Positions 1 to 27,703 of a stretch of DNA of 29,288 nucleotides are shown here, in pieces. Both the position numbers and the translations under genes were made by a program. Numbering within the stretch: the first letter of the stretch is position 1; the number at the start of each line of letters is the position of its first letter. Origin of the DNA: Pseudomonadota bacterium (GTDB lineage: Bacteria; Bdellovibrionota_B; Oligoflexia; Oligoflexales; CAIYRB01); contig JANOTL010000168.1 of NCBI GenBank assembly GCA_031416315.1, positions 1 to 29,288 on the forward strand, read 5' to 3'. Below the pieces are notes generated by a model that searched no databases, had not been told where the DNA came from, and was given only the letters and a program-made list of their open reading frames with translations.

Positions 1-401
1 ACGGCGACCACGATTGCCAGAGGCTTACACTTCGAGTGCTCGAAGGTCTCCATCTCGTCGAAGGTGACGGTGGGGAGGCAGTCGCCGCGGGCTACCGCAG
101 TGGCGTTGTTTTGCGCGGCCTTTGACCCGAGACGGCGCAGCTTTCTTGCCACAGTCTTCCTATGGATTCCCAAGATTCGCGCGCAGCCGCGCTGCGAGAC
201 GCCTTCGTTGAGGGTGCGCGCGAGCACCTGGTCGACGTGCGGCTTTCGCTCGCGATAGGTGAGAGTGCCTGTCTGCGTCGAGAAGCGTCGGCCGCAGCTG
301 TGGCAATGGAAGCGTTGGATTCTCTCAGCGCGCGTCGCCTGCTTGCGAAAAAAGCCGCACTTCGTGACTTCGGCGGCCGCATTTTGGCACAAAGGACACA
401 T
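1..401 (-). CDS. IS1-like transposase, N-terminal 133 codons (absent from the ORF track because it is cut by the window edge)
   Basis: Manual translation: MCPLCQNAAAEVTKCGFFRKQATRAERIQRFHCHSCGRRFSTQTGTLTYRERKPHVDQVLARTLNEGVSQRGCARILGIHRKTVARKLRRLG...TFDEMETFEHSKCKPLAIVVA. Shows a Zn ribbon (CxxC...CxxC), an HTH and the first catalytic Asp. GGAGG at 411-407. Clear paralog of 8764..9687 and 26690..27601. Confidence 0.92.
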   Translation of the reverse strand, partial: MCPLCQNAAAEVTKCGFFRKQATRAERIQRFHCHSCGRRFSTQTGTLTYRERKPHVDQVLARTLNEGVSQRGCARILGIHRKTVARKLRRLGSKAAQNNATAVARGDCLPTVTFDEMETFEHSKCKPLAIVVA

Positions 402-496
402 GTCTGCCTCCTAGGAAAGGAGGCAAGATCGCGAAAACGCGACCGCAATCGAAGCGACATCCCATGTCCGGCCCAACAATTAGGTAGGCCAGTTTA
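1..496 (-). mobile_element. IS1-related insertion sequence, copy 1 (partial, runs off window start)
   Basis: Minus-strand end reads CA-TAAACTGGCCTACCTAATTGTTGGGCCGGACATG. It shares AAACTGGCC and TGGGCCGGACATG with the upstream end of copy 3, and lies 95 bp upstream of a transposase ATG. Confidence 0.8.
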
Positions 497-689
497 TGTT
501 TTGTCGTCGGGTCCCCGCCGTAAGTGCCTTGTCTCCATTTTCCTTCAAAGATCCCCGCCCATTTCCGCGCCGAAAGTTCGCAGCAAAGACGGGCTGAAAC
601 GACCTCATTTCGTCTAAGGATGCGCGCGGCGCGATGGCACACCGATAGGAGTTTTTCAGGTCCTAGCGCGGAACGCCGCGAACTTTGAA

Positions 690-1907
690 ATGAGTCACAC
701 CATGGTGCTGCACAAAGCTCTGTTCATGATCGCCATCCTGGCGACGACGACGACGACTGGCTGCGATCGCGAAGATGACGCAAGCGACGACTCCACCGAG
801 ACTCCGACTACACCGAGCGCGCCAGTCGCCGCTAACGCGCCGCTGGATCCTGCGTCTCCCGCTGCCCCCGCGACGCCTTCGATCACGCCCTTGCCTGCGT
901 CCGCTTCGATGCCCCCCGCTTCGTCGGATGCGACAGGCGCCCCGACCGTCGTCGCCACGAGCCCGCTCGGCGGCGCCGTCGGCGTCGCGATCAACCGCAG
1001 CATCACCGCGACGTTCAGCGAAGCGCTCGACCCGGCGACGATCGACGCCTCGACCTTCGTCCTGATGCAGGGCAACGCGCCGGTCTCCGGCACGGTCACG
1101 TTCCTCGGCCGCGTTGCGACCTTCGAGCCAGACGCCGATCTCATGGTCGACTCGATCTATGCCGCCACGCTGACGACCGGCGTCAAAGACCTCGCCGGCA
1201 ACGCGCTCGCCGCGGAAAATTCCTGGAGCTTCACCTCCGGCGCGGTCGCGGCGCTCGGGCCCGACCCGGTGGCGCTCGGCACCGCGGGGAACTTCGTCAT
1301 CCTCTCGAAGGCCGGAATCACCAACGTCGCGACTTCTGCGATCACCGGCAACATCGGCACGAGCCCGATTACCGGCGCCTCCATCGTCGGACTCGACTGC
1401 GTGCAAGTCGTCGGGACCGTGTTCGAGGTCGATCCCACGGGCCCGGCTTGCGGCACCGTCGACTCGGTCTATCTGACGACCGCCGTCAGTGACATGGAGA
1501 TCGCCTATACGGATGCAGCGGGGCGCACGACACCCGATACTACAGAGCTGGGCGCGGGCGAGCTCGGCGGCTTGACTCTGCTGGCGGGCCTCCACAAGTG
1601 GAGCTCGAACGTCACCGTCTCGACCGATCTGAAGCTCTCGGGCGGCGCCAACGACGTCTGGATCCTCCAGATCGCCGGCGACCTGACCCAAGCGAACGGC
1701 ATCCGCGTGACGTTGGAAGGCGGCGCCCTAGCTAAGAACGTCTTCTGGCAAGTCGCGGGTCAGGTCGACATCGGCACGACGGCGCACGTCGAAGGCACGA
1801 TCCTCACGCAGACCAACATCGCGATGAAGACCGGCGCGACGATGAACGGGCGAGCGCTAGCCCAGACTGCCGTCACGCTGCAAAGCAACACGATCGCTGC
1901 CCCATGA
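690..1907 (+). CDS. Ice-binding (DUF3494) family lipoprotein with Pro/Ala-rich linker and bacterial Ig-like (Big_5/SbsA-type) domain
   Basis: Lipobox-like TTGC (Cys25). Ig-like APTVVATSP...ITATFSEALDPATI...TTGVKDLAGNAL. DUF3494 hallmarks PVALGTAGNFVILSKAGI, GGANDVWILQIAGDL, KNVFWQVAG, NGRALAQTAVTL. Confidence 0.9.
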   Translation: MSHTMVLHKALFMIAILATTTTTGCDREDDASDDSTETPTTPSAPVAANAPLDPASPAAPATPSITPLPASASMPPASSDATGAPTVVATSPLGGAVGVAINRSITATFSEALDPATIDASTFVLMQGNAPVSGTVTFLGRVATFEPDADLMVDSIYAATLTTGVKDLAGNALAAENSWSFTSGAVAALGPDPVALGTAGNFVILSKAGITNVATSAITGNIGTSPITGASIVGLDCVQVVGTVFEVDPTGPACGTVDSVYLTTAVSDMEIAYTDAAGRTTPDTTELGAGELGGLTLLAGLHKWSSNVTVSTDLKLSGGANDVWILQIAGDLTQANGIRVTLEGGALAKNVFWQVAGQVDIGTTAHVEGTILTQTNIAMKTGATMNGRALAQTAVTLQSNTIAAP

Positions 1908-2435: not shown

Positions 2436-4130
2436 CTAAGCGTTTTTTACGACCTGAGGCGATTGGCGCTTGAGCAAGAGCAAGTTCGCGACGGCTTCCC
2501 GAACATCTCGCGCCAGCGCCGGCTTCCCGAGATGCAGATTGAAGCCCGCCGCGATTGCGTTGACCTTGTCGCGCTCGGTGACGAAGCCGGAGAGCGCGAC
2601 GGCCGGAACCTCGCTGCCGAGGCGGCGGCATCTCTGCATGAACGTAAGCCCATCTTCCGTCGGCATGCCGATGTCGCAGATGATGATGTCGATCGTGTTC
2701 GCCGCCAAAGCCTCGCGCGCCGCGCTCGCCGAGTCCGCCTCGACGACCTCAACGCCGTCTCGACGCAGGATCGTCGACACGAGGCGCCGGCTGTCGGGCT
2801 CGTCATCAACGACGAGGATGCGATTCTTGCTGACGGGCGCGGCGACGGCAGCCTTCCCCTCGGCGGGCGCGTCGGTCGCGTCTGCTTCCGCCAGCGGCAT
2901 CCAAACCCGAAACGTCGCGCCCTGGCCCTGGCCGCGGCTTGTCGCCTCGATCGTGCCGCCGTGCATCTCGACAATGTGCGCGACGATCGAGAGGCCGAGG
3001 CCGAGCCCGCCGAACTTGCGCGTGAACGAGCCGTCCTGCTGGCGGAAGCGGTCGAACACGTGCGGCAGGAACGTCGCGTCGATGCCGACGCCGGTGTCTT
3101 TGACCTGGATGACGATGCCGCCGGCCTCTAGGCTTAGGCTCGCCTCGATCCTGCCGCCCTCCGGCGTGAACTTCACCGCGTTGGACAAGAGGTTCCAAAC
3201 GACTTGCTGCAGGCGGCGGCTGTCGGCGAGCACCTCGGCATTCTTCAGGTCGGTGATGAGATGCAAGGTCTGCCGCTTCGCCTTCACCATCGGTTGGAAT
3301 GACTCGAGCGCTTCCGAGACAAGGCGAACGACGTCCTCGGGCTTCTTCTCCAGGATCAGCTTGCCGGAGATGATGCGCGAAACGTCGAGGATGTCGTCGA
3401 TCAAGTCGCGCTGCAAGTTGGCGTTCCGGACGATGGTCGCGAGGGCGGTGTTGAATTCCTCGGAGCCTGGCTCTTCCTGAGGCAGAAGCCCGGCGAAGCC
3501 CAGAATCGCGTTCAACGGCGTCCGCAGCTCGTGCGACAACGTCGCCAGAAAAACGTCTTTCAGGCGGTTCGCCGCCTCCGCGTCCTCTCGCGCCTCGGTC
3601 TCTCGGGCGAGGGCCAAGCCTAGCTCGCGGTTTGCGCCTTCGGTAGCGAGCTTCGCGGCGCGTACTTGACGCAGCAGATCCTCGCGCTCGGCCTCGGCGC
3701 GCCGGCGCTCGAGTTGGCGCCTGCGCGCGTGCAACGCCGAGCGGATGGCCGACAGAATGATCCGCGGGCTCGTCGGCCGCTCGAGGAGCGTCAGATGCCC
3801 TTTTCGATCGAGCGTGTCCAAAACGTCGAAGAGCGCCTTCGACTGCCTTTTCGCCTTCCCGTAACAGACAACAATCGGCAGATCGGACCACGAGGGCTGC
3901 GCCCCGATGGTGCGGAGGAGAGTCTCGACGTCCGTCGGATCCTCCAGCGCCTCCTCGGTCAGGAAGACGGCGCCGACGCCGCGCTCCACCTCGGCACATA
4001 GCTGACGCATCGTGAGCGTCGCCTGGCTCTCCAAGCCGTTGCGGATCAGCGCGTCGCGGACGAGCACGCCGTCTCGCCCCACCGGAGCGCGGACCAGAAC
4101 CCTAAGCTCCGTCTCAATCACGTTTGCCAC
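2436..4130 (-). CDS. Hybrid sensor histidine kinase (degenerate N-terminal receiver-like domain, HisKA, HATPase_c, C-terminal REC)
   Basis: LSHELRTPL H-box, NLLSNAVKFT N-box, DTGVGI, GGLGLGL, REC ILVVDDE...ICDIGMP...GKP. GTG start overlaps the kaiC-like gene end by 17 nt. Confidence 0.93.
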   Translation of the reverse strand: MANVIETELRVLVRAPVGRDGVLVRDALIRNGLESQATLTMRQLCAEVERGVGAVFLTEEALEDPTDVETLLRTIGAQPSWSDLPIVVCYGKAKRQSKALFDVLDTLDRKGHLTLLERPTSPRIILSAIRSALHARRRQLERRRAEAEREDLLRQVRAAKLATEGANRELGLALARETEAREDAEAANRLKDVFLATLSHELRTPLNAILGFAGLLPQEEPGSEEFNTALATIVRNANLQRDLIDDILDVSRIISGKLILEKKPEDVVRLVSEALESFQPMVKAKRQTLHLITDLKNAEVLADSRRLQQVVWNLLSNAVKFTPEGGRIEASLSLEAGGIVIQVKDTGVGIDATFLPHVFDRFRQQDGSFTRKFGGLGLGLSIVAHIVEMHGGTIEATSRGQGQGATFRVWMPLAEADATDAPAEGKAAVAAPVSKNRILVVDDEPDSRRLVSTILRRDGVEVVEADSASAAREALAANTIDIIICDIGMPTEDGLTFMQRCRRLGSEVPAVALSGFVTERDKVNAIAAGFNLHLGKPALARDVREAVANLLLLKRQSPQVVKNA

Positions 4131-5601
4131 CGATCAGCTCCGTCGAGAGGCCGACGAACACCGGGACGCCGTTCAGGACGCCCTGAAAATTGCTTAGCGG
4201 GGCGCCGATCGCGATCGACTTCGGCGCCAGCCTGAACTCGCGGATCGTGGTCTCGTGGGGACCGGTCCGCTTCTTGATGACCGAGATGGCTTTCTTGATC
4301 TCGCCCGCAGCCTCGAAATACCGCATCAAGATGACGCTATCCGCGAGATAGCTGATGTCAGTCGGCGTCTCGAGCGCATTCCCGAGCAAACCGTGTTGCG
4401 TCAGGATCAAGAGCGTCAGGAAGCCATGATGATTCAGAAAGCTCAAGAGCTCGTGCATCTGCACGGTGAGAAGGCTCGCTTCAGGCATCGAGGCGAGATA
4501 GCCCGCGAGGCTGTCGATGACGATCACCCGCGTCCCGTCCTGCTCGACCGACCCGCGCACCAGATGCGCGAATTCGCCCGGGGACAGCTCCGCAGGGTCG
4601 ATCTGCTTCACGATGATGCGCCCGGCGTCGACGTGGCGCTTGAGATCGATGCCCAAGCCCTCGGAGCGGGTGAAGAGAGCGTCACTACTCTCGTCGAAAG
4701 TGAAGATCACCGCGTGCTCGCCACGCGCGGCCGCGGCGGCGGCGTAAAGCGAGCCGATCACCGACTTGCCTGAGCCGACGGGTCCGAGCAGCAAGGCGCT
4801 CGTGCCACGCTGTAGGCCACCACCGAGGAGCATGTCGAGGGAGGTGAGCCCGCTCGATACCGCCTCTTTCTCGTAGGACGCGCGATGCTCCGCGGCGACG
4901 AGCCGCGGGAAGACGCACAATCCGCCGGTCTCGATCAGAAAGTCATGGAGGCCGGAGACGAAGTTGACGCCGCGGAGCTTCGCGACCTCGAGCTGCCTTC
5001 GCGCCCCGCCGTACCGGGGAGAGGTCTTCGTCAAAGAGATCACGCCGTGAACGATGCTGTGCATTTGCAAGTCGGCTTTGTCGCGCGAGCTATCGTCGAG
5101 CAACATCACGGTGCAGCCGCGGGTCACGAGCGCCTGCTTCAAGGCGAGAATTTGCCGCCGGTAGCGCGAAGGGCTCTGCGACAAAAGACGCATCTCCGAA
5201 AGCGAGTCGAAGACGACGCGGCTCGGCTTCACGCGCTCGATCTCGGCGAGCAGCTGGCTCGTGAGCCGGTTGAGTTCCAAGTCGGAGGCGTGGAAGACGG
5301 TGACCTGCTCCGACTCGGCGAAAAGCTCCTCCGACGGCACGAACTCGAAGATCGAGACCTTATCGAGCGCAAGACCGTGCGTCCGCGCCGCGCCTTCGAT
5401 CTCCCGTCTAGACTCGGAGAGCGTGATGTAGAGCGACGATTCGCCGAGGCGCACGCCTTCGAGCAAGAACTGCAAGGACAAGGTCGTCTTGCCGGCGCCC
5501 GGCATGCCCTCGACCAGGTAGACGCAGCCACGCGGCAAGCCGCCGCGAAGGATGATGTCGAGGCCTTCGATCCCGGTGGTGCTACGCGGCGGCTGTTCCA
5601 T
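4114..5601 (-). CDS. kaiC: KaiC-like double-domain RecA-superfamily ATPase
   Basis: Two P-loops (GMPGAGKT, GPVGSGKS), Walker B VVFDS/IVIDS, KLRG and KKRTG motifs, DISYLADSVI. Start placed at ATG 5601 (MEQPPRSTTGIEGLD), GGAG upstream. Confidence 0.9.
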   Translation of the reverse strand: MEQPPRSTTGIEGLDIILRGGLPRGCVYLVEGMPGAGKTTLSLQFLLEGVRLGESSLYITLSESRREIEGAARTHGLALDKVSIFEFVPSEELFAESEQVTVFHASDLELNRLTSQLLAEIERVKPSRVVFDSLSEMRLLSQSPSRYRRQILALKQALVTRGCTVMLLDDSSRDKADLQMHSIVHGVISLTKTSPRYGGARRQLEVAKLRGVNFVSGLHDFLIETGGLCVFPRLVAAEHRASYEKEAVSSGLTSLDMLLGGGLQRGTSALLLGPVGSGKSVIGSLYAAAAAARGEHAVIFTFDESSDALFTRSEGLGIDLKRHVDAGRIIVKQIDPAELSPGEFAHLVRGSVEQDGTRVIVIDSLAGYLASMPEASLLTVQMHELLSFLNHHGFLTLLILTQHGLLGNALETPTDISYLADSVILMRYFEAAGEIKKAISVIKKRTGPHETTIREFRLAPKSIAIGAPLSNFQGVLNGVPVFVGLSTELIGGKRD

Positions 5602-5735
5602 GAAAACCAGAGCTCCGTTTTTGGCGAAACGCCCCGCCAAAGTATCATGGGCGGACGCGCCTCGTCTCCCCGATCCGAAGACGACCATTCCGACTTCCTT
5701 GATCGCGGCCCAAGAGTGAGGCCTCCATCCCCGCC

Positions 5736-7065: not shown

Positions 7066-8322
7066 GTGCAGCTCAAGGCTATCCTCAATTCCATCGAAAA
7101 GCACAAGGGCTTTGTCTACGACGGCGTCTGCTGGGACGCGACCGCCGCCGACAAGACGCTGCTCATCGACGTCCGTCCCCGCCGCGGCAGCCGAGGTTAC
7201 TGTTCGGGCTGCGGCGAGCGCTCGCGTACCTACGACACGATGAAGCCACGACGCTTTCAGTTCGTGCCGCTGTGGGGCATTCTCGTCTTCTTCGTCTACG
7301 CGATGCGCCGCATCGACTGCGAGAGATGCGGTGTCACCGTCGAGATGGTCCCGTGGGCGGACGGCAAGAAGCGGATCACCAAGACCTTCGGCTGGTTTCT
7401 CGCGACGTGGGCCAGGAGCCTCTCGTGGAAGGACACCGCCGAGGCCTTCCAGACGAGCTGGGACACGGTCTTCCGAGCTGTCGAAGTCGCGGTTGAATGG
7501 GGACGATCGCGCCTCGACCTCACCGGTATCACCGCCATCGGCGTCGACGAGATCATGTGGCAACGGGGACACGAGTATCTGACGCTGGTCTATCAGATCG
7601 ACACGCACTGCAAGCGTCTCCTTTGGATCGGTCAACATCGCTCCGAGGAGACGATCAAAGCCTTCTTCACTTGGTTCACGCCTGAGCGCGCAATGGCGCT
7701 GAGCTACATCTGCTCCGACATGTGGAAGCCCTACCTGAAGGTCATCGCCAAGCGCGCGCCGGGCGCGATCCACGTGCTCGATCGGTTCCACATCATGTCG
7801 CACTTCTCGAAGGCGATCGACGAGGTGCGCGCCGACGAAGCGCGCAAGTTGAAGCAGGCCGGCAAGGAGCCGGTATTGAAGGGCTCGCGCTGGTGCTGGC
7901 TGAAGCGCCCCGAGAACCTGACCGACAACCAGGAAGCGAAGCTCGCCGACCTCGTACAAATGAACCTCAAGACGGTGAAGAGCTACCTCTTGAAGGAGGA
8001 TTTTCAGAACTTCTGGGAGTACACGTATCCAGCTGCGGCCGGGCGATTCCTCGACCAGTGGTGTTTCCGCACGATGCGTTCGAAGATCGATCCCATAAAG
8101 ACGGTCGCCCGTATGCTGCGCTCGCATCGCGATCTGCTGCTCAACTGGTTTCACGCCAAGGGGACGATTTCCGCCGGGATCGTCGAGGGCATGAACAACA
8201 AGGTCAAAGTGACTACCAGAAAAGCCTACGGCTTCCGTAGCTACCGCGCCGTGCGATTGGCGCTATATCACAACCTTGGCGGCCTGCCCGAGCCGGAGTT
8301 CACCCACAGATTCTGCGGTTGA
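7066..8322 (+). CDS. ISL3-family transposase
   Basis: Zn finger CSGC...CERC, AIGVDE, ICSDMW, DRFH, VEGMNNKVK..TRKAYGFR. Intact 418 aa with GTG start. Confidence 0.95.
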   Translation: MQLKAILNSIEKHKGFVYDGVCWDATAADKTLLIDVRPRRGSRGYCSGCGERSRTYDTMKPRRFQFVPLWGILVFFVYAMRRIDCERCGVTVEMVPWADGKKRITKTFGWFLATWARSLSWKDTAEAFQTSWDTVFRAVEVAVEWGRSRLDLTGITAIGVDEIMWQRGHEYLTLVYQIDTHCKRLLWIGQHRSEETIKAFFTWFTPERAMALSYICSDMWKPYLKVIAKRAPGAIHVLDRFHIMSHFSKAIDEVRADEARKLKQAGKEPVLKGSRWCWLKRPENLTDNQEAKLADLVQMNLKTVKSYLLKEDFQNFWEYTYPAAAGRFLDQWCFRTMRSKIDPIKTVARMLRSHRDLLLNWFHAKGTISAGIVEGMNNKVKVTTRKAYGFRSYRAVRLALYHNLGGLPEPEFTHRFCG

Positions 8323-8333
8323 GGCAAAAAAAT

Positions 8334-8664
8334 GAACCCGAACAACCTGCCCCTCGATCGCGGTGTTGTTCGACGCTCTGGCCGTGCCCGGCGGCAAGGC
8401 CGCCGTCAACCTCCTCGGTAAGCTCGGCCATGCCCTCGAGTTCATCAAAGATCAATACCGCCACGCCAAGCCGATCCTCGCGCTCGGCGAGGGCGCGGAC
8501 CTCGTCGAGAACGCCGGCGCGTCCGCCAAGCTCTCTTCCGACGCCGACGACCCGGGCATGATCGTCGACCGGAAATGCAGTACCGCGAAGCTCCTCGGCG
8601 CCTTCGTCGAGGCCATCGCCAAGCATCGTCACCACGAGCGCGAGATGGATCCGCCGCCCTCTAA
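8334..8664 (+). pseudogene. katE: C-terminal GATase1/DJ-1-like domain fragment of large-subunit catalase (HPII/KatE type)
   Basis: VLFDALAVPGG...ALEFIKDQYRHAKPILALGEG...FVEAIAKHRHHEREMDPPP matches the KatE C-terminus. No heme catalase core is present on either side. Confidence 0.8.
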
Positions 8665-8670
8665 ACCGCA

Positions 8671-9696
8671 TAAACTGCCCTACATGTCTGCGCCCACCCG
8701 CTGATGTCGCTTAACTTGGCGCGCGGACTGGATGAAAGTTGCCCTCTTTGAGGGAGGCTTTCAATGCGTTGCAAGCACTGTCATGAAACTTCCGGAGTGT
8801 TGAAGAAGGGCAGTTTTCTGCGGAAAACCGGCCTCAGGGCGAAGATCCGTCGGTATTTCTGTCGTCTTTGCCGCCGCCACTTTTCGGAGCAAACCGACGC
8901 TCTTTGTCGGGGCCACCGGCGGCCGGAGCTCAACGGAATTGTCGCGGCTCTCTTAGCCTCAGGAGTGTCGCAGCGTCGCACTGCAAAGCTACTCGGCACG
9001 ACGCAGGTGACGGTGGCGCGCAAGCTCGTCCGCATTGGCCTCTTCGCTGCGCGCTATGAAGCGACACGTTGGCAGAAGGAGGCGGGGACTGTGAAAGTTA
9101 TTAACTTCGACGAGATGGAATCGTTTGAGCACTCGAAGTGTAAGCCCTTGGCCATCGCCGTTGCGGTGGAGCAAGGCACCGAGCGAATCATCGACGCCAA
9201 GGTCTCACGCATGCCCGCCAAAGGTCGCTTGGCGGTCATCGCACGTCGCCGCTACGGCTATCGAAAAGACTGTCGTTCTAACGGTTTGCGTAAAGTTCTG
9301 CGGACCTCGGCCATGGCGGGCACATACGACGTAAAGTTGAAATCGGACTCTTGCCCCCGCTACCCGAAGCTCGTTGCCGCGTGCGTCCCAAACGCGACGC
9401 TCGAAACCTCCCTCAGTCGCAAGGCTTGTGTTGTAGGGCAAGGCGAGCTCAAGGCGGGAGGCTTTGACCCGCTCTTCTACATCAACCACGCATGCGCCAT
9501 GTACCGTGACAATGTAAAGCGACTAACTCGCCGCACGTGGTGCACGACCAAGCGCCCTGATCGCCTACAGGCACTGGTCGACCTATACCGATTCGTTCAT
9601 AACGCTATGATCGACCACAAGCTGGCCCAAATGAGTCCAGGTCGCAGCGGCGGACTTTTGTCTTTGATTGCAGGCGCAGGTATGTAGAGCAGTTTG
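8671..9696 (+). mobile_element. IS1-related insertion sequence, copy 2, complete (~1026 bp)
   Basis: IRs 8672-8694 AAACTGCCCTACATGTCTGCGCC and 9673-9695 (reverse complement AAACTGCTCTACATACCTGCGCC), 20/23. Flanking direct repeat TAAACCGCA at 8662-8670 and 9697-9705. Visibly lower GC than neighbours. Confidence 0.9.
8764..9687 (+). CDS. IS1-like transposase (Zn ribbon, HTH, RNase H-like domain)
   Basis: CKHC...CRLC, SGVSQRRTAKLLG HTH, FDEME, KSDSCPRY, INHACAMYRDNVKRLTRRTWCTTK. Stop lies inside the IRR. Confidence 0.88.
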   Translation: MRCKHCHETSGVLKKGSFLRKTGLRAKIRRYFCRLCRRHFSEQTDALCRGHRRPELNGIVAALLASGVSQRRTAKLLGTTQVTVARKLVRIGLFAARYEATRWQKEAGTVKVINFDEMESFEHSKCKPLAIAVAVEQGTERIIDAKVSRMPAKGRLAVIARRRYGYRKDCRSNGLRKVLRTSAMAGTYDVKLKSDSCPRYPKLVAACVPNATLETSLSRKACVVGQGELKAGGFDPLFYINHACAMYRDNVKRLTRRTWCTTKRPDRLQALVDLYRFVHNAMIDHKLAQMSPGRSGGLLSLIAGAGM

Positions 9697-9780
9697 TAAA
9701 CCGCATCTCCCGATTATTGCATGGGAGTGGCCCCGGGCATTCCGCCTGGCCGTCATGATGAAGATGGGGAGAGACCAAAC

Positions 9781-11021: not shown

Positions 11022-11648
11022 ATGGTTCAAGTCGACGTTTTTTGGTCTTACGGCCTGGCCTCCGGCCTGGCTCTCGCCGGTCGCGAGCAACTTCGTCGCG
11101 AGGCGACGCCGTTCGACAACCGCGTCTTCACCGGCATGTTGTTGTGGATCGCGCTCCTCTTCGCGCCGTCGGGCGTCTACCTGCTCTGGGCCTTCCCCTC
11201 GTGGGAGACGATGTTCGTCGCGCCCGATCACGCCGCGATTCCGGCGTGGCTCGTCGCGCTCTTCGCGTTGACGAATGTCAGTCAAGCCGTTCTCGGCTTC
11301 TACGTGACTTGGCGCTGCTTGCGCGCCGGGCGCGACCGCGTCGCATGGCTGCAGACGATCGGCAGTCACGCCGCGATGCTCTTCGTCCTGGTCGTCGGCT
11401 GGGACGGCACCGGCATCCAGCGCTTCACCTACACCGGCACCGCGGCCGATTTCGCCACCGGCGTCGCGTATCCTTGGCGCGCGTTCATCGGCTCTCCGGT
11501 GTTCGTCGCGCTTGCGGTGATGGGCCTCGTTCTCGTACCGTCTTACGCGTGGCTCTGCCGCGCGTTTGCACGCATGACAAGCGCTAAAAGCGCTTACTCC
11601 ACTCCAAAAGCGCCGTCCCAGCAGCCTGCCCCGTCTGCTCGTCCTTAG
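11022..11648 (+). CDS. Polytopic integral membrane protein, function unknown
   Basis: MVQVDVFWSYG... with about five hydrophobic helices, FAPSGVYLLWAFPSWETM, GWDGTGIQRF. Start could instead be 10980. Confidence 0.8.
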   Translation: MVQVDVFWSYGLASGLALAGREQLRREATPFDNRVFTGMLLWIALLFAPSGVYLLWAFPSWETMFVAPDHAAIPAWLVALFALTNVSQAVLGFYVTWRCLRAGRDRVAWLQTIGSHAAMLFVLVVGWDGTGIQRFTYTGTAADFATGVAYPWRAFIGSPVFVALAVMGLVLVPSYAWLCRAFARMTSAKSAYSTPKAPSQQPAPSARP

Positions 11649-14600
11649 ACAAGTCCGTCTCTACCGACCACGTACTACTGAGGCGCCGCCGCAGGCCCAC
11701 CCGCTGATCGGCCTCCTGCGTCGTCCCGAGATTGAGCGAGGTGCGGCTGTCGAGCCGCACCTTCGCGTTGAAGGACTTGGTCGCGGGATTGTAACGCACG
11801 CTCTCGATCGGCGTCGTCGCCAAGAGATACAAAGACGCGAGTCCCACCATCCGGTCGGCGAAGGCCGCGCTGAGGTCGTCGGCCGTCTGCAGCTGGTCGT
11901 CGTCCGCGTTCGCCGCGTCTTGTCCGTAAAGCAAGATGGAGATGATCTCGCGCTCCGTACGGATCGGCGTGCTCTCGAAGGCGATGATCGGCTCCTCGGT
12001 CGTGCCGCGGATGCGGATGTTGATGACGATATCGGTGTATTTGAACTCGATGTTACCGTCGACCGTGGGGCTCTCCTCCTCCCCGGCGGGCAACCCGATC
12101 GCCACCGACTTCACGTCGGCCTTGCGGCGGAAGACCTCGAAGCCGAACTCCTCGATCCGGATCATGCCGCGCATGCCGCTGTTGTCCAGCACGACGCCTT
12201 CGACGCTGATCGGGACGACGCTCGAGGTCAGGTTCGTGCTGATGCGCACCGGGTTGGTCTTCCGCGTGTCGATCTCGACGTGGTACGCGAGCGGATTCTC
12301 GTCGACAGCCACCTCCGGCTTGCACTTCGCGACCTCGATGCGCCGATCGGGGAAGAGCATCGGAAACCGCTCGCGCAGCGAGAACCGCGGCAAGGTCAGC
12401 GCGATGTCGTCGAGCGTCACCTTCGTCGTCACCGATTTCTTCGGCACAGCCGAGCCCAGCTCGCTCAGCCCGAATGCGCCCACGGCGCCGACGTTGAAGC
12501 GCTGATCCTTCGACCGGAGCGCCGCCTTGAACTCGAACGGCAGCTCCACCTTGCGCGTGGTCGAATCGCCGCGCAGCCTGACGGAGACCTTACTGAAGCC
12601 CTCGAGCTCGTTGAACGGCGCGATGATCGCGTAAGGGGTGTGCTGAAGCTTGTCGACGATGACCGCGAAGCTCTCGATCGCGAGGTCTAAGCCGCCGCGC
12701 GTGGACCATGTCGGATTCTGCGCCGGCGCGTCCTGGGCCGCGACGAAGTCGCCCTCGACTTTGCCCGCGATGCTGAACCCGTCGGGCTTCGCCTTGAACT
12801 CGACCTCTCGCAAGCCGACCGACGCCGCGCCGCGCCAGACCGGCTTCGGCCCGGCTTCGCCGACGACGGCCAAAGAGGTCGTGATGCCGGCCGTCACCGT
12901 TTCCGCCTTACCGTGCGCCTGCGCCTCGGGCGCGGTGAGAAGCGCCGTCAGCCCGATCGGACAGGTCGCGTCGAGCCGCGCCGTAGGCAGCCCGTCGGCG
13001 TACTGCAGATCGAGCTTGCACGAGCTCAGAGTGATCGCCTGCAGGTCGAGATTCGGCCCCGGCGGCGGCGACTCGCACGCCTCCTCCGGCGTCACGCTCG
13101 GAAGCACGACTCGGGCGAGTCCCGAAATCAGGGACAGTTTGCCCTGAAGCGCCAGGTTCGTCGCGCGCGGGCTCACCTCGCCCGCGATCGTCACCGTTGA
13201 CGCCGAAAGCCCTTTGATGCCTTGGCCCGTGACCGTCCCGCGCAGAACGACCGTCTCGGCGCGTTCTTCCCGTCCGCTCAGGGCGACGCTCACCGACTCG
13301 CCGGTCGGCAACGCGGCGGAGGCGCTCAAAGTTCCCGCGAGCGGCCCCTCGGGCGTCTGACCGCCGTCGAACTCGAGGCGCACGCGCTCTCCTGTCGAGA
13401 ACGCGGCCGCTGCGCGCAGGTTCCCGCGGTATGGCCCCTGCAGCGGCCGCTCGCCCGATCCGGCCCGCGCCGTCAGCTCGACCGTGCGCAGCCGCTCCGC
13501 AAGGCCCGGATCCGCCGACTGCGAAAGGCTCGGCAGTATTGTCGCCTCGAGTAGCCAGGCGCTTCCACCGGGCGCGGGAGCCAAGCTCAAGTCGACCTTC
13601 CCCCGCGCCACTGCCGGCTGCCGCACGCCGCGCTCCGTCGGCACGACGACGATCTCGCCGAAACGCACGTGGTAATGCTCGGGATCGCGGTTGGCGAAAG
13701 GAAGGGCGCGCCAATCGAAAGCGTCCGCCTCGGCCGCTGCGCTCGTCACGGGCGCGCCACTCGATGCTTCCGCGGCGCCGTCTGGCAGGATCACGACCAT
13801 TTTCTCGGAGGCGGCGCTCGCCCGTTCGACCGAAGCGAGGCTCCACCCGCCGTCACCGGCCGCTTTCGCGAGCGTCGCACCCAGATCCACTCGCTCCAGA
13901 CAACCGTCCGCATAAGGAATCTCGAGGCACAGATCCTTGGCCTTCACGCGAGCCTCGATCTCGCTCACGCTCGACAGGGACGCATGCTTCGGCACCGACG
14001 CGAACGCTTCGACGCTTCCCTCGAACGTCCACGGCACGCCGTCGATCACGACGCGCACTTCGGTGTCGCGGACCTGAACCTCAGCCTGCTCCAGGCTCGC
14101 GCCGCTCACGAGCTTAGGCATCACGAACGGCTCTTCCGGCGCCACCCGCACAGGTTCCGCCGGCCCGCCCTCGCCGAAGATCAGGCGCACGTCGCGCGCC
14201 GAGACCTTGACCGGCCCGAGCTGCGTCACCCGTACGAACCCCAACGCATCGAGCCCCAGAGCCGCCTTCACCGAAACGTGCTGCACGCAGGCGTCTTTCC
14301 GCGCGGCTTTCCAGCTCCACGGCACCGACTCGCGCCAGCAGATCGGGGCCCATCCAGCCTCGGCGTCGTTGACCGAGATGGCGAGGCGGCCGGCCTCCGG
14401 CATGCGCAAGGAGACTTGCAACGGGCCGTCGAGCGCCCCCGCATCGGTCATGACCCGCACGCGATCGAAGCTCAAGCGCGCGGGCTCGAACACCGCCTCG
14501 GCGAGAATCCAGGGCACCTCGATTCGATCAGGATCGAACGTCGAAGGTTCCGCCTCCGGCGCCGGGGCGAAGGGCCCCACCGCGAGCTTGCCGCCCGAGA

Positions 14601-14964
14601 CGAACACGCCGCCGATGCGCGTCACCCGCAGAAAGCGCGGGAAATCGGCGAGCCGCCAGCCCAGATCCACGGCCCCGATCAGGCTCTCGGCGCAAAAATC
14701 CAGGGGCACGCTGTCCACGGCCACGCAGAGGCCGCGAAAATCCCAGGCGAACCGATGCGTCCACCGCTCGGGTGTCGAGCTTTCCAGCGCGACCTCGCGC
14801 CAGGAGGCTTCGACGCCGACCTTTTGTAGGAGCCCCGGCGCGTAAGACAAGGTGCGCTCGTTGAAGAGCCAGCTCGGCCGAAAGAACAGCACGAAGACGA
14901 GGCTCCCCGCCGCCGCGGCGAGGAGCGCCAGGAATCCGAGCAAGATCTTTACGGCGAGCCGCAT
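11584..14964 (-). CDS. TamB/AsmA-like translocation and assembly module protein
   Basis: N-terminal TM anchor, long beta-rich body, C-terminal IRGTTEEPIIAFESTP...EIISILLYG motif, ends LEWSKRF. Starts just after the Omp85 gene stop. Confidence 0.8.
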   Translation of the reverse strand: MRLAVKILLGFLALLAAAAGSLVFVLFFRPSWLFNERTLSYAPGLLQKVGVEASWREVALESSTPERWTHRFAWDFRGLCVAVDSVPLDFCAESLIGAVDLGWRLADFPRFLRVTRIGGVFVSGGKLAVGPFAPAPEAEPSTFDPDRIEVPWILAEAVFEPARLSFDRVRVMTDAGALDGPLQVSLRMPEAGRLAISVNDAEAGWAPICWRESVPWSWKAARKDACVQHVSVKAALGLDALGFVRVTQLGPVKVSARDVRLIFGEGGPAEPVRVAPEEPFVMPKLVSGASLEQAEVQVRDTEVRVVIDGVPWTFEGSVEAFASVPKHASLSSVSEIEARVKAKDLCLEIPYADGCLERVDLGATLAKAAGDGGWSLASVERASAASEKMVVILPDGAAEASSGAPVTSAAAEADAFDWRALPFANRDPEHYHVRFGEIVVVPTERGVRQPAVARGKVDLSLAPAPGGSAWLLEATILPSLSQSADPGLAERLRTVELTARAGSGERPLQGPYRGNLRAAAAFSTGERVRLEFDGGQTPEGPLAGTLSASAALPTGESVSVALSGREERAETVVLRGTVTGQGIKGLSASTVTIAGEVSPRATNLALQGKLSLISGLARVVLPSVTPEEACESPPPGPNLDLQAITLSSCKLDLQYADGLPTARLDATCPIGLTALLTAPEAQAHGKAETVTAGITTSLAVVGEAGPKPVWRGAASVGLREVEFKAKPDGFSIAGKVEGDFVAAQDAPAQNPTWSTRGGLDLAIESFAVIVDKLQHTPYAIIAPFNELEGFSKVSVRLRGDSTTRKVELPFEFKAALRSKDQRFNVGAVGAFGLSELGSAVPKKSVTTKVTLDDIALTLPRFSLRERFPMLFPDRRIEVAKCKPEVAVDENPLAYHVEIDTRKTNPVRISTNLTSSVVPISVEGVVLDNSGMRGMIRIEEFGFEVFRRKADVKSVAIGLPAGEEESPTVDGNIEFKYTDIVINIRIRGTTEEPIIAFESTPIRTEREIISILLYGQDAANADDDQLQTADDLSAAFADRMVGLASLYLLATTPIESVRYNPATKSFNAKVRLDSRTSLNLGTTQEADQRVGLRRRLSSTWSVETDLSKDEQTGQAAGTALLEWSKRF

Positions 14965-14965
14965 G

Positions 14966-16693
14966 TCAGAACTCTTCTCCAAAGCTGAGGAACGCCGTCA
15001 ACCGCGGCTGAAAGCGCGCGGCGACCCTCTCGTCCTCGGTCCGCACCAAACCCCGCGCCACGCTGCCCCGCAAACTGCCGATTGGCGACTGCCAGCGCAC
15101 GCCGAAGCCCGGTGAGTAATAGATGGTCGGGTCGAAGATCCAGCCGCCCGGCCCGATCTGCCCCGCGTCCAGGAACCCAAACGGCTGGATACCGTACGGC
15201 ACGATGGTCACGAGCCGCGTCTCCGAGCCGACGGTGACCAGCGTGCGCGCGCCCTTCTCCTTCGACGGCACGGTCCGCCGCACGAAGCCGCGCACGTCGT
15301 CGGAGCCGCCGAGATAGTGGAGGTACTGATCCGGCAGCTCGACGTCCGCGTCCGCATCCGTGTTCGCGACGCGCGCGCGGATGCCGAAGACGAGCAGCGG
15401 CGGCTCGAGCATCGCCGTGTTGAAGAGGACCTGGCCGTTGGCCGTGAACGTGTCGACGGCCATCGTCGAGAGCGTGCGATCCGACGCGGTCGTGTAGCGC
15501 CAGTCGACGAAATGCCCGGTACGCGGCGAGCCGCGGAAGAACTCGTAGGCGTGGCTCAGCACGCGTCCGCTCACCTCGGCCTCGAGGATCCGCGCGAAAT
15601 CCGGCGCCTCACCGCGGAACGTCCGCACGTGGTTCAGGTTTGGCCCCGTGTAAACGCGCCAGTAGCGCCCCCAGAAATCGCGATAGGCGCCGAGGTGCCA
15701 CGACGCCGTGGTCGTCTGTGCCTCGCTCTCCTTCTCGCTTTGCCGGTCGAACGCCAGTCGCGGCTTGAAGTGAAAAGCCGACGGCGTCGCGAGGAAGTAC
15801 CAGTCGAAGCTGGCCTCGATCCGCTGCTTGACGTAGTTCGCCGAGAGGACGGCGTCGAAACGCGAGGCGTTGGCGTCCACGCGCGCGTTGCGGTAGCTGC
15901 TGCGCACCAGGAAATAGGTCTCGGTGTTCACGCCGAAGCCGACCGACATGCGCCGCGCCGGCCCGGTCACGGCGCGATGCTGCACCAAGGCGCCGTCGGG
16001 CTCGCAGGTGCTGACCATGTAGGTGCTGGCGAGGATATCCTCCGAGCGGATGCGCTCGTTGGCGATGAACACCAGGTCGCCGTCGTACCAGTCGCCCTCG
16101 GTCAGCGGAAAGTAGCGGCGTAGCGTCAACGGGCGAAGATCGACCGACTGCTCCTCGTCGATCCGCTTGACGCGCAGCCGCGGCCCGTTCTGAGCGGTGA
16201 CGGTCATCGAGCGCTCCGGCGCGTCGGCGGTCGCCTCGACGGACGGGCACGGATAGCCGCGACTCTCGATCCTGCCCCGCACCAGGTCCTCGTATTCATT
16301 GAGGAGCCCCGGCGTCAGCGTCTTGCGCGGCGGCACCCAAAACCGGCTGAAGTCGAGCTCGGCAGGCATCCCCTCGCCGCGCAGGATCTTGATCCGCGTC
16401 TTGTCGCCGATCTCGACGACGAGGACCGTGCCTTCGCGCCCGAACGTCGGCTGAAAATAGCCGCGGGACTGAAGGAAGGACACGATGAATTGCTTCACCT
16501 GGCTTTCCGACGGATCGGCCCACGGCGCGTTCTTCTCGTCGCCGCAAAGCAGGCGCTTTTCCGTCTCGCTGAAGTTGAGCTCGACCTCGCCGCGCATCAG
16601 GAGCTCGGGACACAACTTCACGTCTTCCGCCGCGGCCCAAGGGGCCAGGCAAAGGCAGGCGAAACCGAGTAAAAAAAGGGTGCGCGCCAGCAT
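14966..16693 (-). CDS. Omp85 family (TamA/BamA-like) outer membrane protein
   Basis: Signal peptide MLARTLFLLGFACLCLAPWAAA, POTRA-like LQSRGYF and ESRGYP, loop motif GGSDDVRGF, GFGVRWQSPIGSLR, terminal Phe (FGEEF). Confidence 0.88.
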   Translation of the reverse strand: MLARTLFLLGFACLCLAPWAAAEDVKLCPELLMRGEVELNFSETEKRLLCGDEKNAPWADPSESQVKQFIVSFLQSRGYFQPTFGREGTVLVVEIGDKTRIKILRGEGMPAELDFSRFWVPPRKTLTPGLLNEYEDLVRGRIESRGYPCPSVEATADAPERSMTVTAQNGPRLRVKRIDEEQSVDLRPLTLRRYFPLTEGDWYDGDLVFIANERIRSEDILASTYMVSTCEPDGALVQHRAVTGPARRMSVGFGVNTETYFLVRSSYRNARVDANASRFDAVLSANYVKQRIEASFDWYFLATPSAFHFKPRLAFDRQSEKESEAQTTTASWHLGAYRDFWGRYWRVYTGPNLNHVRTFRGEAPDFARILEAEVSGRVLSHAYEFFRGSPRTGHFVDWRYTTASDRTLSTMAVDTFTANGQVLFNTAMLEPPLLVFGIRARVANTDADADVELPDQYLHYLGGSDDVRGFVRRTVPSKEKGARTLVTVGSETRLVTIVPYGIQPFGFLDAGQIGPGGWIFDPTIYYSPGFGVRWQSPIGSLRGSVARGLVRTEDERVAARFQPRLTAFLSFGEEF

Positions 16694-16726
16694 GAGGCCG
16701 CCTTGATACCATGCACGGGGGGCAAC

Positions 16727-17422
16727 GTGGAAATCACCAGAGTGACGACGCCGCAGCTGAAGACGCTGCTGGATCATTACCGCCGGACGACGCCGGCGGC
16801 GCATCATCAGCGGTTCCTAATTTACTTGCGCCAGGTTGCCGCGCGCTATGAAGCCGAATTGCTTCAGCTAGAGCCGGGCATCACGCGGGCTCGGGCGGCG
16901 CTGCGCCTCCTGGACGAGGAAGTGGATCGTTCCCACGTCATCCCGTCCACCTGTCGCGAAGGCTGCGCCCACTGCTGCACCCTCCCCGTCGAGGTCACCG
17001 CGGACGAGGCGGCCCTGCTCGCGGAGGCGGTGCGCGACGGCTGCGAGATCGCCCTCGACCGCCTGGCGGACCAGGCCCGGCGGGAAAAGCACGACCCCGC
17101 CTGGAGAAGCCGCACCGATCCCGGCAATCGTTGCGCGTTCTTACGCGCCGAGGGCACGTGCAGCGCCTACGACCGTCGCCCGAGCGCTTGCCGAAAGCAC
17201 CTCGTCATCAGCCCTCCGGGCGCCTGCGCCCAGCCCGGCGGGGAGCCCCAGGCGATTTCGATCCCCCTAGGCGAAGTCCTCGTAAGCGTCGCTCTGAGCC
17301 TCCCGGAAAACTCGATCGCCTCTTTGGCTCGAAGCGTCACCTTGGCCATGGAGCGGAATTTGCAAAGCGACGGCGAACGCAACCGGGCCGAGCCGATCGG
17401 AGATGAACCATGCCAAGCCTAG
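16727..17422 (+). CDS. YkgJ-family (CxxCxxCC-type) Zn/Fe-S cluster protein
   Basis: CREGCAHCC, CAFL..EGTCSAYDRRPSACR. Start uncertain (16703/16727/16742). Confidence 0.85.
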   Translation: MEITRVTTPQLKTLLDHYRRTTPAAHHQRFLIYLRQVAARYEAELLQLEPGITRARAALRLLDEEVDRSHVIPSTCREGCAHCCTLPVEVTADEAALLAEAVRDGCEIALDRLADQARREKHDPAWRSRTDPGNRCAFLRAEGTCSAYDRRPSACRKHLVISPPGACAQPGGEPQAISIPLGEVLVSVALSLPENSIASLARSVTLAMERNLQSDGERNRAEPIGDEPCQA

Positions 17423-22061: not shown

Positions 22062-22120
22062 TCGTGGCAAGATCCGCCCCGGTCCCGCACAACTTCTGCG
22101 TGCCTCTTGGAAGCCTTCCC

Positions 22121-25100
22121 ATGAACACCGCCAAATCCCTGCGTCGTGTCAGCGCTCTCATCCTCGTCGCCGCCTTCGCGCAAGCGTGCGGCGCGAAGGG
22201 CTCGTCGCGAGACGACTCCCCAGCGCCAACCGGCGGTCCGGGCAAGCCGACCGTCGAGGCGACGCCTTCGCCCGCGCCGGGCCAGCCGCATACCCCCACT
22301 CAATCGCCGAACCCGGGCCAGCCGCCGCAACCGGGTCAGCCCGCGCCCGCGCCGACGGGTCCGACCCCGGTCAACGCGCAGCTCGTGCTCTCGCTCGCCA
22401 ACTTCGACTCCGACGTCGCGACCGACGAGCAAGCGCTCCAAGTCTTGAGCTTGCGGTGCCAAAGCTGCCACGGCGCGCAGAGCGGGGCGCGCTGGAATCT
22501 GACGGTTCTGCCGTCGCCCATGCAATGGGCCGAGATCAAACGCCGCGTCGAGCTCGACGTGGGCACGCCCGGTCATATGCCGATCGGCGTCGCGATCTCC
22601 GGCGACGAGAAGGCGAGTCTCGTCGGCTGGCTTGACCAGCGCCTCGCGCCGCCGACCGACGATCCCTTCTTTGACTACGCCGTCACCATCGACGCGCAGA
22701 CGCCCGAGAAAATCGCTCCGGGACGCTTCGTCCTCCCGCTTGGGCAAAGGGCGGCCGGCCAGCTCGTGAGCTTTGAGGTCACGATCACCGGCAAAGATCA
22801 GATCGCCCGCGTGACGACGCTCGCGGGCCTTCCCGTGCCGTCCGACGGCATCGTCTACCAGACCGTCACGGTCGAGCCGCGCGACACGACCGTGCCGGCC
22901 CTCGTCGATCGGGCTCTTCGCGCCTCGAGCATCACCGACACGAGCCTGCGTCTCGCCTGGAGCGCGGCGACCGACGACCGCCCGACCGAAGACCTCACGT
23001 ACGCCCTTTCCCGCGACGGTCAAATCGTCGAAGGAGTGCAAGCAGAGGCCGGCGGCTTCTTCGCCGACGTCGCCGGCCTCGCGCCAGGCCAAAGCTACGG
23101 GTTCGCGGTCATCGTCCGTGACCTCAGCGGCAACGAGACCGCCTATCTACCTCTCCGCGCGACGACGACCGGCCCGGTCGAGACGCACCTCGATCTACGC
23201 CTCACGACGACCGGCTCGCAGCTCGTTCCGGACGGCCGCGCGCTCGAGCTCCTCAAGAATCGCTGCCAAACCTGCCACAACCCGCAAAATCCGCCGCGCT
23301 GGGACCTCACCGTCCTGCCCTTGCGCGCGAATTGGGCCGAGATCACGCGTCGCATCAACCTGGACGAGCACGCGATCGGCCACATGCCGATGGGCGCCGC
23401 GATGCCGCGCGATGAGCTCGGGACCTTGAACCGCTGGTTCGCCGAGCAACAAAGCCCGGCCGACATCTTCGCGGGCTACACCGTGCGCGCTTTCGACGGC
23501 GCGACCAACGCCGAGCTGACGGCCGCGCCGCTGAGCCAAGGCCGCACGCGCATCGCGCTCGGCCTGCGCCGCCCCGCTGCCGCCCTTAAAGTGAAGGTCC
23601 TCGTGACCGGCGCCGACGGCATTGCGCAGAACTTCGCCGTGCCCTTGACCGTCGCCGCCAACGGCGCTTCGCTGGAAGGCCTCGCCGTCTTCGCCCGCGA
23701 CAGCACGGCACCGGTCGTCACGACGCCGACGCTGCGCGCCGCGGATTTGACGGCGACGTCGGTGACCGTGTCGCTAGAGGCCGCGACCGACGACCGTCCG
23801 ACGCAGCACCTGACGTATTTGATGTATCGCTCCGACGTCCAACAACTCGATTCCCTCGACGAGATCACGCAGCACGGCGTGCGCGTCGGCTCCGATTTGA
23901 GCGGCACCGGCGCCCTCTCTGTCGACGTGGCGGGCCTCGAAGCCTCGCGCACTTACTACTTCAACGTCGTGGTCCGTGACCGCACCGGCAACGAGTCGGT
24001 CTACGCGAAGCTTTCGGTGCTGACCTTGCCGCTCGTGTTCTGCGAGGAGATCCAGCAGATCGGCAGCATCCGCGCGTGGCGTAACGGCCTCGTGCAGCGG
24101 ATCCAGCTCGGCGCCATCGCGGACGGCGAGATCGTCGAGCAGGTGAACCGTTGCTTCCCGACCGAGAAGCCGCAGTGCGTCGAGCGCGTCGTCACCTACG
24201 CGCAACGCGACGACGTCGCGCCCTCCGGCTCCGACGGCACGATCGAAGACGTCCCGCAGAAGCGGCCGCCGAATGAGATCAAGGACGCCGTCACCGGCAA
24301 ATATTGGATCCCGGACGACATCGAGCAAATCGCCAAGGACAAGGGCTGGACCTCGGTCCGCTACAAGAGTCGCCACGCCGGCGGCTTCGACTCCGGCACG
24401 CCGAACCTCCTCATGGTCTACGTCCCCGGCGACAAGGTGAGCCCTCCGGTGAAGTTCGACCGTTGGCTCAACTTCCCGCTGCCGCAGGACGACGACGAGC
24501 CGGCCTCCGGCCTGCCGCAAAGCCCGCGCCCAAAATTCGGCCCGCCGAGCCGCGAGGACTACGCGCTACCGAACAGCTTCCCCAGCACCTTCACCATGGT
24601 CTCCCAGGACCGCGCCGAGGACGGCAAACCCGCCGTGGTTTACTTCCAGATGTTCGGCCGCGGCAACGGCTACACCTTCGAGCCGCGCGGCGCCGTCGGC
24701 ATGCGCGGCTGCGTCAGCTGCCACCCGAACGGCCTACGCGCCATCAGCCCTCTCGGTTACCACGTGCGGGAGGGCGAGGAGCGCCTGCCCGACGAGGACT
24801 GGAAAGCGGTCGAGCTCATCAACCGCATGATGGTCGAGCGCGCCGGATTCAAGGCCGCGACCTGGGGCGAAGGCCTGACGAACGGCGAAAAGAAGCCGCT
24901 CTATCGCGCCGAGCGCGGCCCGATCATGGGCCCCGCCGCTCCGGCCAACGGCATCAGCAGAAAGCCCGCCTTCATCCTCGGCGGCACGATCAACGGCCAG
25001 CAGGTCGACGGTTGCTTCAAGCGCCGCTCGACGATCACCGTCCGAGACATCTTCGGTCGCAGCCCCGGAATGTACGAGCCGACCTACAAGTTCAAGCTCT

Positions 25101-26650: not shown

Positions 26651-26683
26651 TCAACTGCCCTAAATGACATGTAGAGCAGCTTA
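26651..26683 (+). mobile_element. 33-bp mini-element made of abutted IRL and IRR of the copy-2 type
   Basis: TCAACTGCCCTAAATG matches copy-2 IRL 14/16. CATGTAGAGCAGCTTA matches copy-2 IRR 13/16. Confidence 0.65.
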
Positions 26684-26689
26684 TAACTC

Positions 26690-27601: not shown

Positions 27602-27692
27602 GCGACACCTCCACGAGGCGCCAACACTGGACGAAGACGAGAAGGTAGGGAAACGACGTCACATGTCCGGCCCATTTATAAGGGCCAGTTTG
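26693..27692 (-). mobile_element. IS1-related insertion sequence, copy 3, complete (~1000 bp)
   Basis: IRs 26694-26718 AAACTGGCCCCGATGATTGGGCCGG and 27667-27691 (reverse complement AAACTGGCCCTTATAAATGGGCCGG), 21/25. Flanks TAACTCTCA (26684-26692) and TGACTCTCA (27693-27701). Confidence 0.88.
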
Positions 27693-27703
27693 TGACTCTC
27701 ACA

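Follow-up and report, generated by a model that had tools for sequence, protein, structure and literature searches.

The window analysed here is a 29,288-nucleotide stretch that makes up the entire contig C168 of a 6.36-Mb bacterial genome with 65% GC, and it raises the question which kind of mobile element left three related transposase genes in it and how these genes came to differ from one another. An earlier note on this DNA had taken them for members of a distinct, IS1-related and recently mobile family. Our data show that the element is a real insertion sequence (IS), a variant of the IS1 type whose active site, ends and population structure are unusual.

Three diverged copies in one contig

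The three paralogous transposase ORFs described before were confirmed (Table 1), with a mutual identity of 45-58% and with ATG codons located 95, 93 and 91 bp inward of the left ends of copies 1, 2 and 3, as had been stated. The interval 8662-9705 proposed earlier corresponds exactly to the copy 2 element together with its two target duplications. The host genome contains seven full-length elements and several fragments, which fall into three subtypes: i) subtype A on contigs C95, C170 and C32, with the cut copy 1 and a right half on C88, ii) subtype B with copy 2 and the copies on C47 and C180 and iii) subtype C with copy 3. The ORF of copy 1 is cut by the contig end, and the full-length subtype A transposases elsewhere in the host genome comprise 291 aa. 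The ORF of copy 3 extends through the right inverted repeat (IR) and takes its stop codon from the three target bases that follow, an arrangement found in three of 99 elements, copy 3 included. The right target copy of copy 3 is adjoined by a 33-bp imperfect palindrome, which is possibly a collapsed subtype B element. A sigma-70-like promoter was not found in copy 2, and Rfam gave 0 matches.

Table 1. Elements and neighbouring genes in the window (IR, inverted repeat).
Feature	Position	Strand	Description
Copy 1 element, left half	1..496	-	subtype A, truncated by contig end; 91-97% identity to the copies on C95, C32 and C170
Copy 1 transposase ORF	3..401	-	
Copy 1 left IR	472..496	-	
Copy 1 left target half	497..505	-	right half outside the contig
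Ice-binding-like protein	690..1907	+	with bacterial Ig-like domain (PF11999, PF13205); just past copy 1
Apparent hybrid histidine kinase	2436..4130	-	follows the KaiC-like gene
KaiC-like double ATPase	4114..5688	-	PF06745
ISL3 transposase	7066..8322	+	intact; NF033550 above cut-off; single copy in the host genome
Catalase fragment	8363..8661	+	C-terminal fragment of a long catalase (PF18011)
Copy 2 left target duplication	8662..8670	+	9 bp, TAAACCGCA
Copy 2 element	8671..9696	+	complete subtype B element, 1026 bp; limits set by alignment with the C47 and C180 copies and by the family register
Copy 2 left IR	8671..8695	+	20/25 match to right IR
Copy 2 transposase	8764..9687	+	307 aa; predicted triad D116, D195, N241
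Copy 2 right IR	9672..9696	-	overlaps the final ORF codons
Copy 2 right target duplication	9697..9705	+	9/9 identical to left
Omp85-family protein (PF01103), then 1,132-aa protein	11584..16807	-	a TamA/TamB-like arrangement
1,116-aa protein	22064..25414	+	repeated CxxCH motifs and fibronectin III-like domains; Pfam matches below or near cut-off
33-bp remnant	26651..26683	-	two subtype-B-like ends that face each other and match copy 2 left IR at 16/18 and 15/18
Copy 3 right target duplication	26684..26692	-	8/9 identical to left; provides the ORF stop codon
Copy 3 transposase	26690..27601	-	303 aa; D117, D196, N242, R249
Copy 3 element	26693..27692	-	complete subtype C element, 1000 bp
Copy 3 IRs	27668..27692 and 26693..26717	-	20/25 match
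Copy 3 left target duplication	27693..27701	-	

Among the neighbouring genes, the ISL3 transposase sits immediately upstream of the catalase C-terminal remnant. The insertion point of copy 2 is the end of the catalase C-terminal domain, and the remnant is thus flanked by two IS.

Element ends and target site

All visible ends had been read before as YA-N-AAACTG. This motif indeed has exactly five matches in the window, all at element ends, compared to a mean of 0.5 and a maximum of 3 in 300 base shuffles of the window, whereas the YA is host target DNA: the element begins at N, and YA represents the last two bases of the duplication. The target consensus is about TRA-NNN-TYA, a loosely palindromic preference, and the YA of the earlier motif stems from it; family-wide, no more than 87 of 248 ends have YA outside. 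The true form of the element is N-AAACTG…CAGTTT-N with a 9-bp target duplication. The two coexisting IR subtypes are real, with AAACTGC in copy 2 and AAACTGG in copies 1 and 3. The duplications, formerly described as intact, are so for copy 2, whereas that of copy 3 has one mismatch.

This form rests on homologous loci from many genomes. An unanchored inverted-repeat search around 80 related loci recovered the AACTG core in most of them. Anchored on this core, 77 of 87 loci had paired ends (the other 10 were dropped), and the flank identity of the anchored loci rises in a single register only, starting two bases outside the core and then spanning nine. From 30 further loci, four with short flanks and one unpaired were dropped, so that 25 of the 26 with enough flank had paired ends; the pairing rule passes 0 of 78 flank controls. 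A 9-bp duplication with at least 7/9 identity is present in 23 of the 77 loci (15 perfect), compared to 0.9% of 5,852 mismatched pairs, and pooling gives 25 of 124 elements, 17 of the 124 being perfect. The 9-bp register lies above background and the 8-bp register at background level. A 10- or 11-bp duplication, as suggested by copy 2 alone, was ruled out by the subtype A copy on C170 and the family register.

The 124 distinct elements measure 968-1435 bp (median 1034), and their 248 pooled ends show imperfect IRs of about 22-25 bp, in which the first base is free (98 A, 90 T, 41 C, 19 G), AAACTG follows and a second TG stands at positions 19-20. NAAACTG is found in 183 of the 248 ends, a GG start in one, and the second TG in 224. 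The TG at positions 6-7 is partly built into the anchoring rule, whereas the unanchored search and the unanchored TG at 19-20 are independent of it.

Several further ideas on target choice and derivatives were discarded. The idea that the element prefers targets similar to its IR was rejected (1.76 versus 2.03 background); IR remnants adjoin 3 of 198 ends (null 0.14%). That host stop codons are targeted was set aside as well, and the gene stops at 9 or 3 nt in 11 and 8 of 188 flanks, respectively, are read as a by-product of target motif and selection. A MITE family was not found in the host genome, where 72 IR-like matches compare with 33-64 for shuffled patterns; the genome scan gave one facing pair, the 33-bp remnant. 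At a contig end of a same-genus genome (L189, G036:C820), a subtype-B-like left end is bordered by nine outer bases that match the copy 2 target at 8/9 in an unrelated context.

A predicted D-D-N active site

The transposase is encoded by a single unbroken ORF of 290-310 aa and combines a four-cysteine Zn ribbon, an HTH and an RNase H-type core. Using the copy 3 protein, 2,629 homologues were found among 8,000 scored candidates, and a profile search gave 489 clusters at E≤1e-30. In the N-terminal part, Cys 33 and 36 are invariant, and InsA of IS1 matches the profile of the main group (A1) at E 8e-14. A PDB sequence search gave no significant match. The AlphaFold model (pLDDT 92.5) has its best fold matches among DDE transposases and integrases, including ISCth4 (Z 12.3, rmsd 7.1, 243 aligned) and the MMTV integrase core (Z 10.6, rmsd 3.4, 139 aligned). 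In this model, D117 lies on strand 113-122, D196 ends strand 192-196, and N242 and R249 are on helix 239-251. This would place the acidic residues on strands 1 and 4 of an RNase H core and the predicted third metal ligand on the following helix.

D117, D196 and R249 are invariant in the diverse alignment A2. The third position is Asn in 113 of 113 and in 103 of 104 rows, the remaining one being Asp, and it is never Glu. In a joint MAFFT alignment, N242 falls without a gap into the catalytic Glu column of IS1, extended IS1-like proteins, IS6 and IS1595. In contrast, hhalign opens a three-residue gap and aligns N242 to the Asn that precedes the IS1 glutamate by three positions; with this pairing, a third ligand would be missing. 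Because of this gap, it is likely but not proven that N242 is the third residue of a D-D-N site and replaces the catalytic Glu. The earlier note had overlooked this Asn, and the site is predicted to be D-D-N, with Arg at +7, instead of DDE. There is a precedent, as four of six fetched IS1595 members have Asn as third residue.

Relationship to IS1, IS6 and IS1595

Where scores are shown, no transposase model of Pfam or NCBIfam is matched at its cut-off. All 113 members match the IS1 model NF033558 weakly, the best shown with 78.6 bits in comparison to a cut-off of 100 and the window proteins with 35-53 bits. PF03400 is not matched by the window proteins, DDE_Tnp_IS1 is absent among the 25 of 34 Pfam families listed for 104 members, and DDE_Tnp_IS1595 is absent among the Pfam matches listed. 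Profile comparison by hhalign with small outgroup profiles of 2-7 sequences gave 99.5% for IS1 over 216 columns; with the core only, IS1 reached 97.4%, IS6 66.3% and IS1595 2.5%, and with the N-terminal domain IS1595 reached 99.3% and IS1 98.4%. In the tree, from which L159 was omitted as its first Asp is absent, the main group and a sister family of about 380 aa form their own clade (99/99). In the AU tests, run without the long-branched L094, a grouping with IS1595 (p-AU 0.49) or IS6 (0.55) was not rejected. The earlier proposal of a separate and diversified clade, related to IS1 and with conserved ends other than GG, is supported.

We compared the clade with IS1A of E. coli K-12, single-ORF IS1 of Bacteroidota and the models NF033558 and PF03400. 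The order Zn ribbon-HTH-core is common to both, as are an Arg at +7 after the third residue, the +8 spacing to the next Arg and a Lys at +15. The target duplication of IS1 is about 9 bp, as in the clade. IS1A ends carry GG, TG at 6-7 and TG at 20-21, and the clade has TG at 6-7 and 19-20 without GG, so that it resembles IS1 in register but not at the tip. Further differences are Asn for Glu, 290-310 aa versus 231-232, elements of 968-1435 bp versus 768, and two inserts in the core, one of about 17 residues behind strand 3 and the other a GQGELK-GGFDP loop. In addition, the A6 frameshift run of IS1 (PMC12428005) is absent from the two complete ORFs of the window.

Four extended IS1-like proteins (L162, L169, L170, L172), which we take to be of the ISMhu11 type, share with the clade a longer protein, the Zn ribbon-HTH and an aromatic-Asn motif after the core, but they keep the Glu, carry a TPAxAAG tail absent from the main clade, form a separate clade (98/87) and match the core at 74%. 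IS1595 (ISAma5, ISClsp5, ISH4 and unnamed members) resembles the clade in its N-terminal zinc finger and HTH and in the third Asn of four of the six fetched members, and differs in the core match, in having Lys or Arg at +7 followed by another tail, and in a duplication of usually 8 bp (PMC8101967). GGnnnTG is common to IS1 and IS6, and altering the GG abolishes IS26 activity (PMC6807381). In IS6/IS26, as in the clade, duplications are often missing, which is put down to adjacent deletion; IS6/IS26 differs by DDE, GG tips, a 14-bp IR, an 8-bp duplication and the weaker core match; common short IS6 members have an H-HTH N-terminus and not a Zn ribbon. The sister family (A4, 370-385 aa) agrees in D-D-N and the Arg at +7, invariant in 69 of 69 sequences, and in an hhalign value of 99.9%, and differs by an extra invariant Asp at N+3 and a longer C-terminus. 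Its 113 homologues carry almost no Pfam domain, and the single sister locus examined (L093, G001:C24:23500-27000) has different, G-rich ends.

Judged from these comparisons, the element would work like an IS1-type IS, and it departs from IS1 in three defining traits, the DDE triad, the GG ends and the model cut-off; it likewise departs from the defining traits of IS1595 and IS6. Measured against the Pfam and NCBIfam models and the literature searched, the family is apparently uncatalogued. Our literature search gave no description of the clade; the tables in the IS1/IS1595 reviews by Siguier may bear on its novelty, and the portion of PMC12642874 considered here names IS3-family elements as the only ones. 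We regard it as unlikely that the group is already catalogued as an IS1/ISMhu11 member or as an unclassified ISfinder entry outside the libraries used. The weak NF033558 match of all members would fit this, as would the 'IS1 family transposase' name given to one member by NCBI and to one cluster automatically by the ESM Atlas, and a YxxxHN tail that resembles extended IS1-like proteins. On the other side stand the best score shown, below the cut-off, the missing DDE_Tnp_IS1 among the families listed, the Glu and the separate clade of all four extended proteins, the silence of the literature searched, and the lack of a close relative among 72,556 annotated plasmids and 50,697 phages.

Host range

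The clade is widespread among Bdellovibrio-type bacteria and nearly confined to related phyla. Of 131 genomes in the phylum of the window, 46 have matches, as do 141 of 401 sampled genomes from the phylum of a Halobacteriovorax genome, with up to 14-18 matches per genome. Among 301 sampled Actinomycetota, the only full match was in the seed genome, on a 2.3-kb contig. The best 80 named loci comprise 64 from Bdellovibrionota, 8 from Pseudomonadota without class, 6 unlabelled and 2 others. Three viral contigs carry distant relatives, which fail the end-pairing rule. The 82% complete same-genus genome G036 gave no protein match and two left-end fragments at contig ends.

Divergence, age and selection

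Recent mobility, as assumed before, is not supported by our data: no two full-length copies of the host genome exceed 93.4% identity, and two of five duplications carry a mismatch. Copies of the same subtype share 91.5-93% ORF identity with a dS of 0.22-0.32 and a dN/dS of 0.07-0.15. Median dN/dS values are 0.03-0.13 in 12 genome sets with close pairs, and the private changes of six copies in the G562 chromosome are 19 synonymous and 3 not. The transposase ORFs are under purifying selection. An empty-site joint was not found among the joints listed in reads.

As two contigs of the host genome, the window and C88, begin inside an element and several matches are located at the ends of contigs, the collapse of short reads could mask identical copies and leave only diverged ones visible. 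We therefore sampled six single-contig chromosomes, in which 39 of 42 loci had paired ends and were kept. None of these 39 copies reaches 99% identity to a sister (the median being 91.9% and the best value 98.8%), and six have a duplication that matches at 8/9 or better. Two of the same chromosomes resolve identical or nearly identical IS3 copies: four in G562 are 100% identical and three in G659 98.9-99.5%. An assembly artefact is thus largely refuted for the family and highly improbable as a general explanation, and it may still apply to the host genome. In one multi-contig genome, three of ten pairs reach at least 99%; therefore, recent duplication does occur. Copies within one genome are mosaics that share 99-100% tracts with changing partners. 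Two frameshifted copies (L254/L255, G458) are 97.8% identical overall, which suggests either gene conversion or that a defective copy was spread in trans.

Homologues with IRs and duplications were found at unrelated sites and not at syntenic positions, with two flank-sharing pairs among 99 elements. At one homologous site (L023/L026), two related genomes carry different elements with 86% identity, inserted 3 bp apart and each flanked by a perfect duplication of its own; this site is a hot spot. The two genomes share one other insertion, with a dN/dS of 0.17. Such a shared copy, the intactness of nearly all copies and their purifying selection, also on private branches, and the near confinement to related phyla would be expected if the copies were old and largely immobilised, kept by the host as domesticated genes or useful deletion makers, with a weak or dead D-D-N site. 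We consider this very unlikely, because shared sites are extremely rare, the two IRs are conserved throughout, perfect duplications persist in 17 of 124 elements and at the homologous site with two neighbouring insertions, and named IS1595 members use Asn too; the low dN/dS of the shared copy can be explained by mosaic tracts.

Another explanation would be mainly non-duplicating movement, by cut-and-paste or by arrival on foreign DNA with loss of the donor, so that the copy number stays flat while lineages diverge. This is in line with perfect duplications beside nearest sisters that are 92-97% alike, with two mismatches over the 45 duplication sites of the host genome in comparison to its dS values, with the nearly identical IS3 controls in two of the same chromosomes and with the relatives on three viral contigs. 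However, IS1 is described as primarily replicative (PMC12428005), one genome contains the nearly identical pairs mentioned above, the highest match numbers per genome indicate net amplification, and the viral copies do not pair their ends. We see non-duplicating movement as possible but less likely.

Flanks and transposition mechanism

A duplication is absent in 76 of 99 distinct elements. The flanks of these 76 nevertheless contain the target motif at the exact 9-bp register (3.52 versus 2.08, z 15.7), and the distal triplet of the motif is present as well (z 11.8). As the motif occurs in both flanks without a duplication, each junction would be made by the transposase, with the two halves derived from different targets. 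The usual causes are adjacent deletion and recombination between copies (PMC11708052). Recombination is unlikely at a copy identity of 58-79%, as in genome G134, so that adjacent deletion is favoured, and the unmatched flanks are pointing to deletions made by the transposase.

We propose that the Zn ribbon-HTH would bind the IR, and that the D-D-N site would hold the metal, nick each 3' end and join it to the target with a 9-bp stagger. As with IS1 and IS26, an event within one chromosome would remove the neighbouring DNA, so that a single copy ends up flanked by two target halves that are unrelated. If the enzyme acts mostly on its own element and at a low rate, only lineages that still move would survive, and copies would diverge synonymously without a burst. 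Since the A6 run is missing, low activity must come from elsewhere, conjecturally from the Asn site or weak expression.

For the strand pathway, IS1-like copy-in with simple insertion would have slightly better than an even chance, mainly conservative cut-and-paste would be a plausible minority candidate and circle-based copy-out an improbable one. Copy-in that leaves a single chromosomal copy fits the absence of identical sisters. However, copy-in also predicts near-identical sisters and swapped duplications, and in the six single-contig chromosomes neither such sisters (0 of 39) nor an exact inverted swap between copies was found. As the inversions expected of copy-in are not seen, cut-and-paste stays a serious rival. 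One exact direct match was seen, for a copy flanked by a perfect duplication of its own. In AT-rich sets, an exact match and several near ones were not counted as evidence. Taken jointly, an autonomous IS of about 1.0-1.2 kb on the IS1 side of IS1, IS6 and IS1595, mainly in Bdellovibrionota and with the mechanism proposed here, is in our view probable.

Biological meaning

A more far-reaching reading, which we put forward tentatively and consider rather unlikely as a whole, is a new IS family of the main clade and its 380-aa sisters, with Asn for Glu on the IS1 side, a free terminal base and a slow, largely non-duplicating persistence in Bdellovibrionota without burst and extinction. If this were true, copies would stay functional for long, delete adjacent DNA and exchange tracts, unlike standard IS dynamics. 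For these dynamics, a model of acquisition, burst and extinction has been put forward (PMC3522654), and intact, diverged copies beside identical IS3 elements in the same chromosome form a controlled exception to it. An IS1 scaffold with a naturally occurring D-D-N site, together with ends lacking the GG needed by IS26, allows direct tests of the roles of the third ligand and of the terminal bases in the IS1/IS6 group. Since about one third of the sampled genomes in two phyla carry an unnamed element, their mobile DNA is undercounted. Bdellovibrio-type hosts are predatory, and a transposase that is adapted to its host and mildly prefers palindromic targets is a possible genetic tool in such bacteria.
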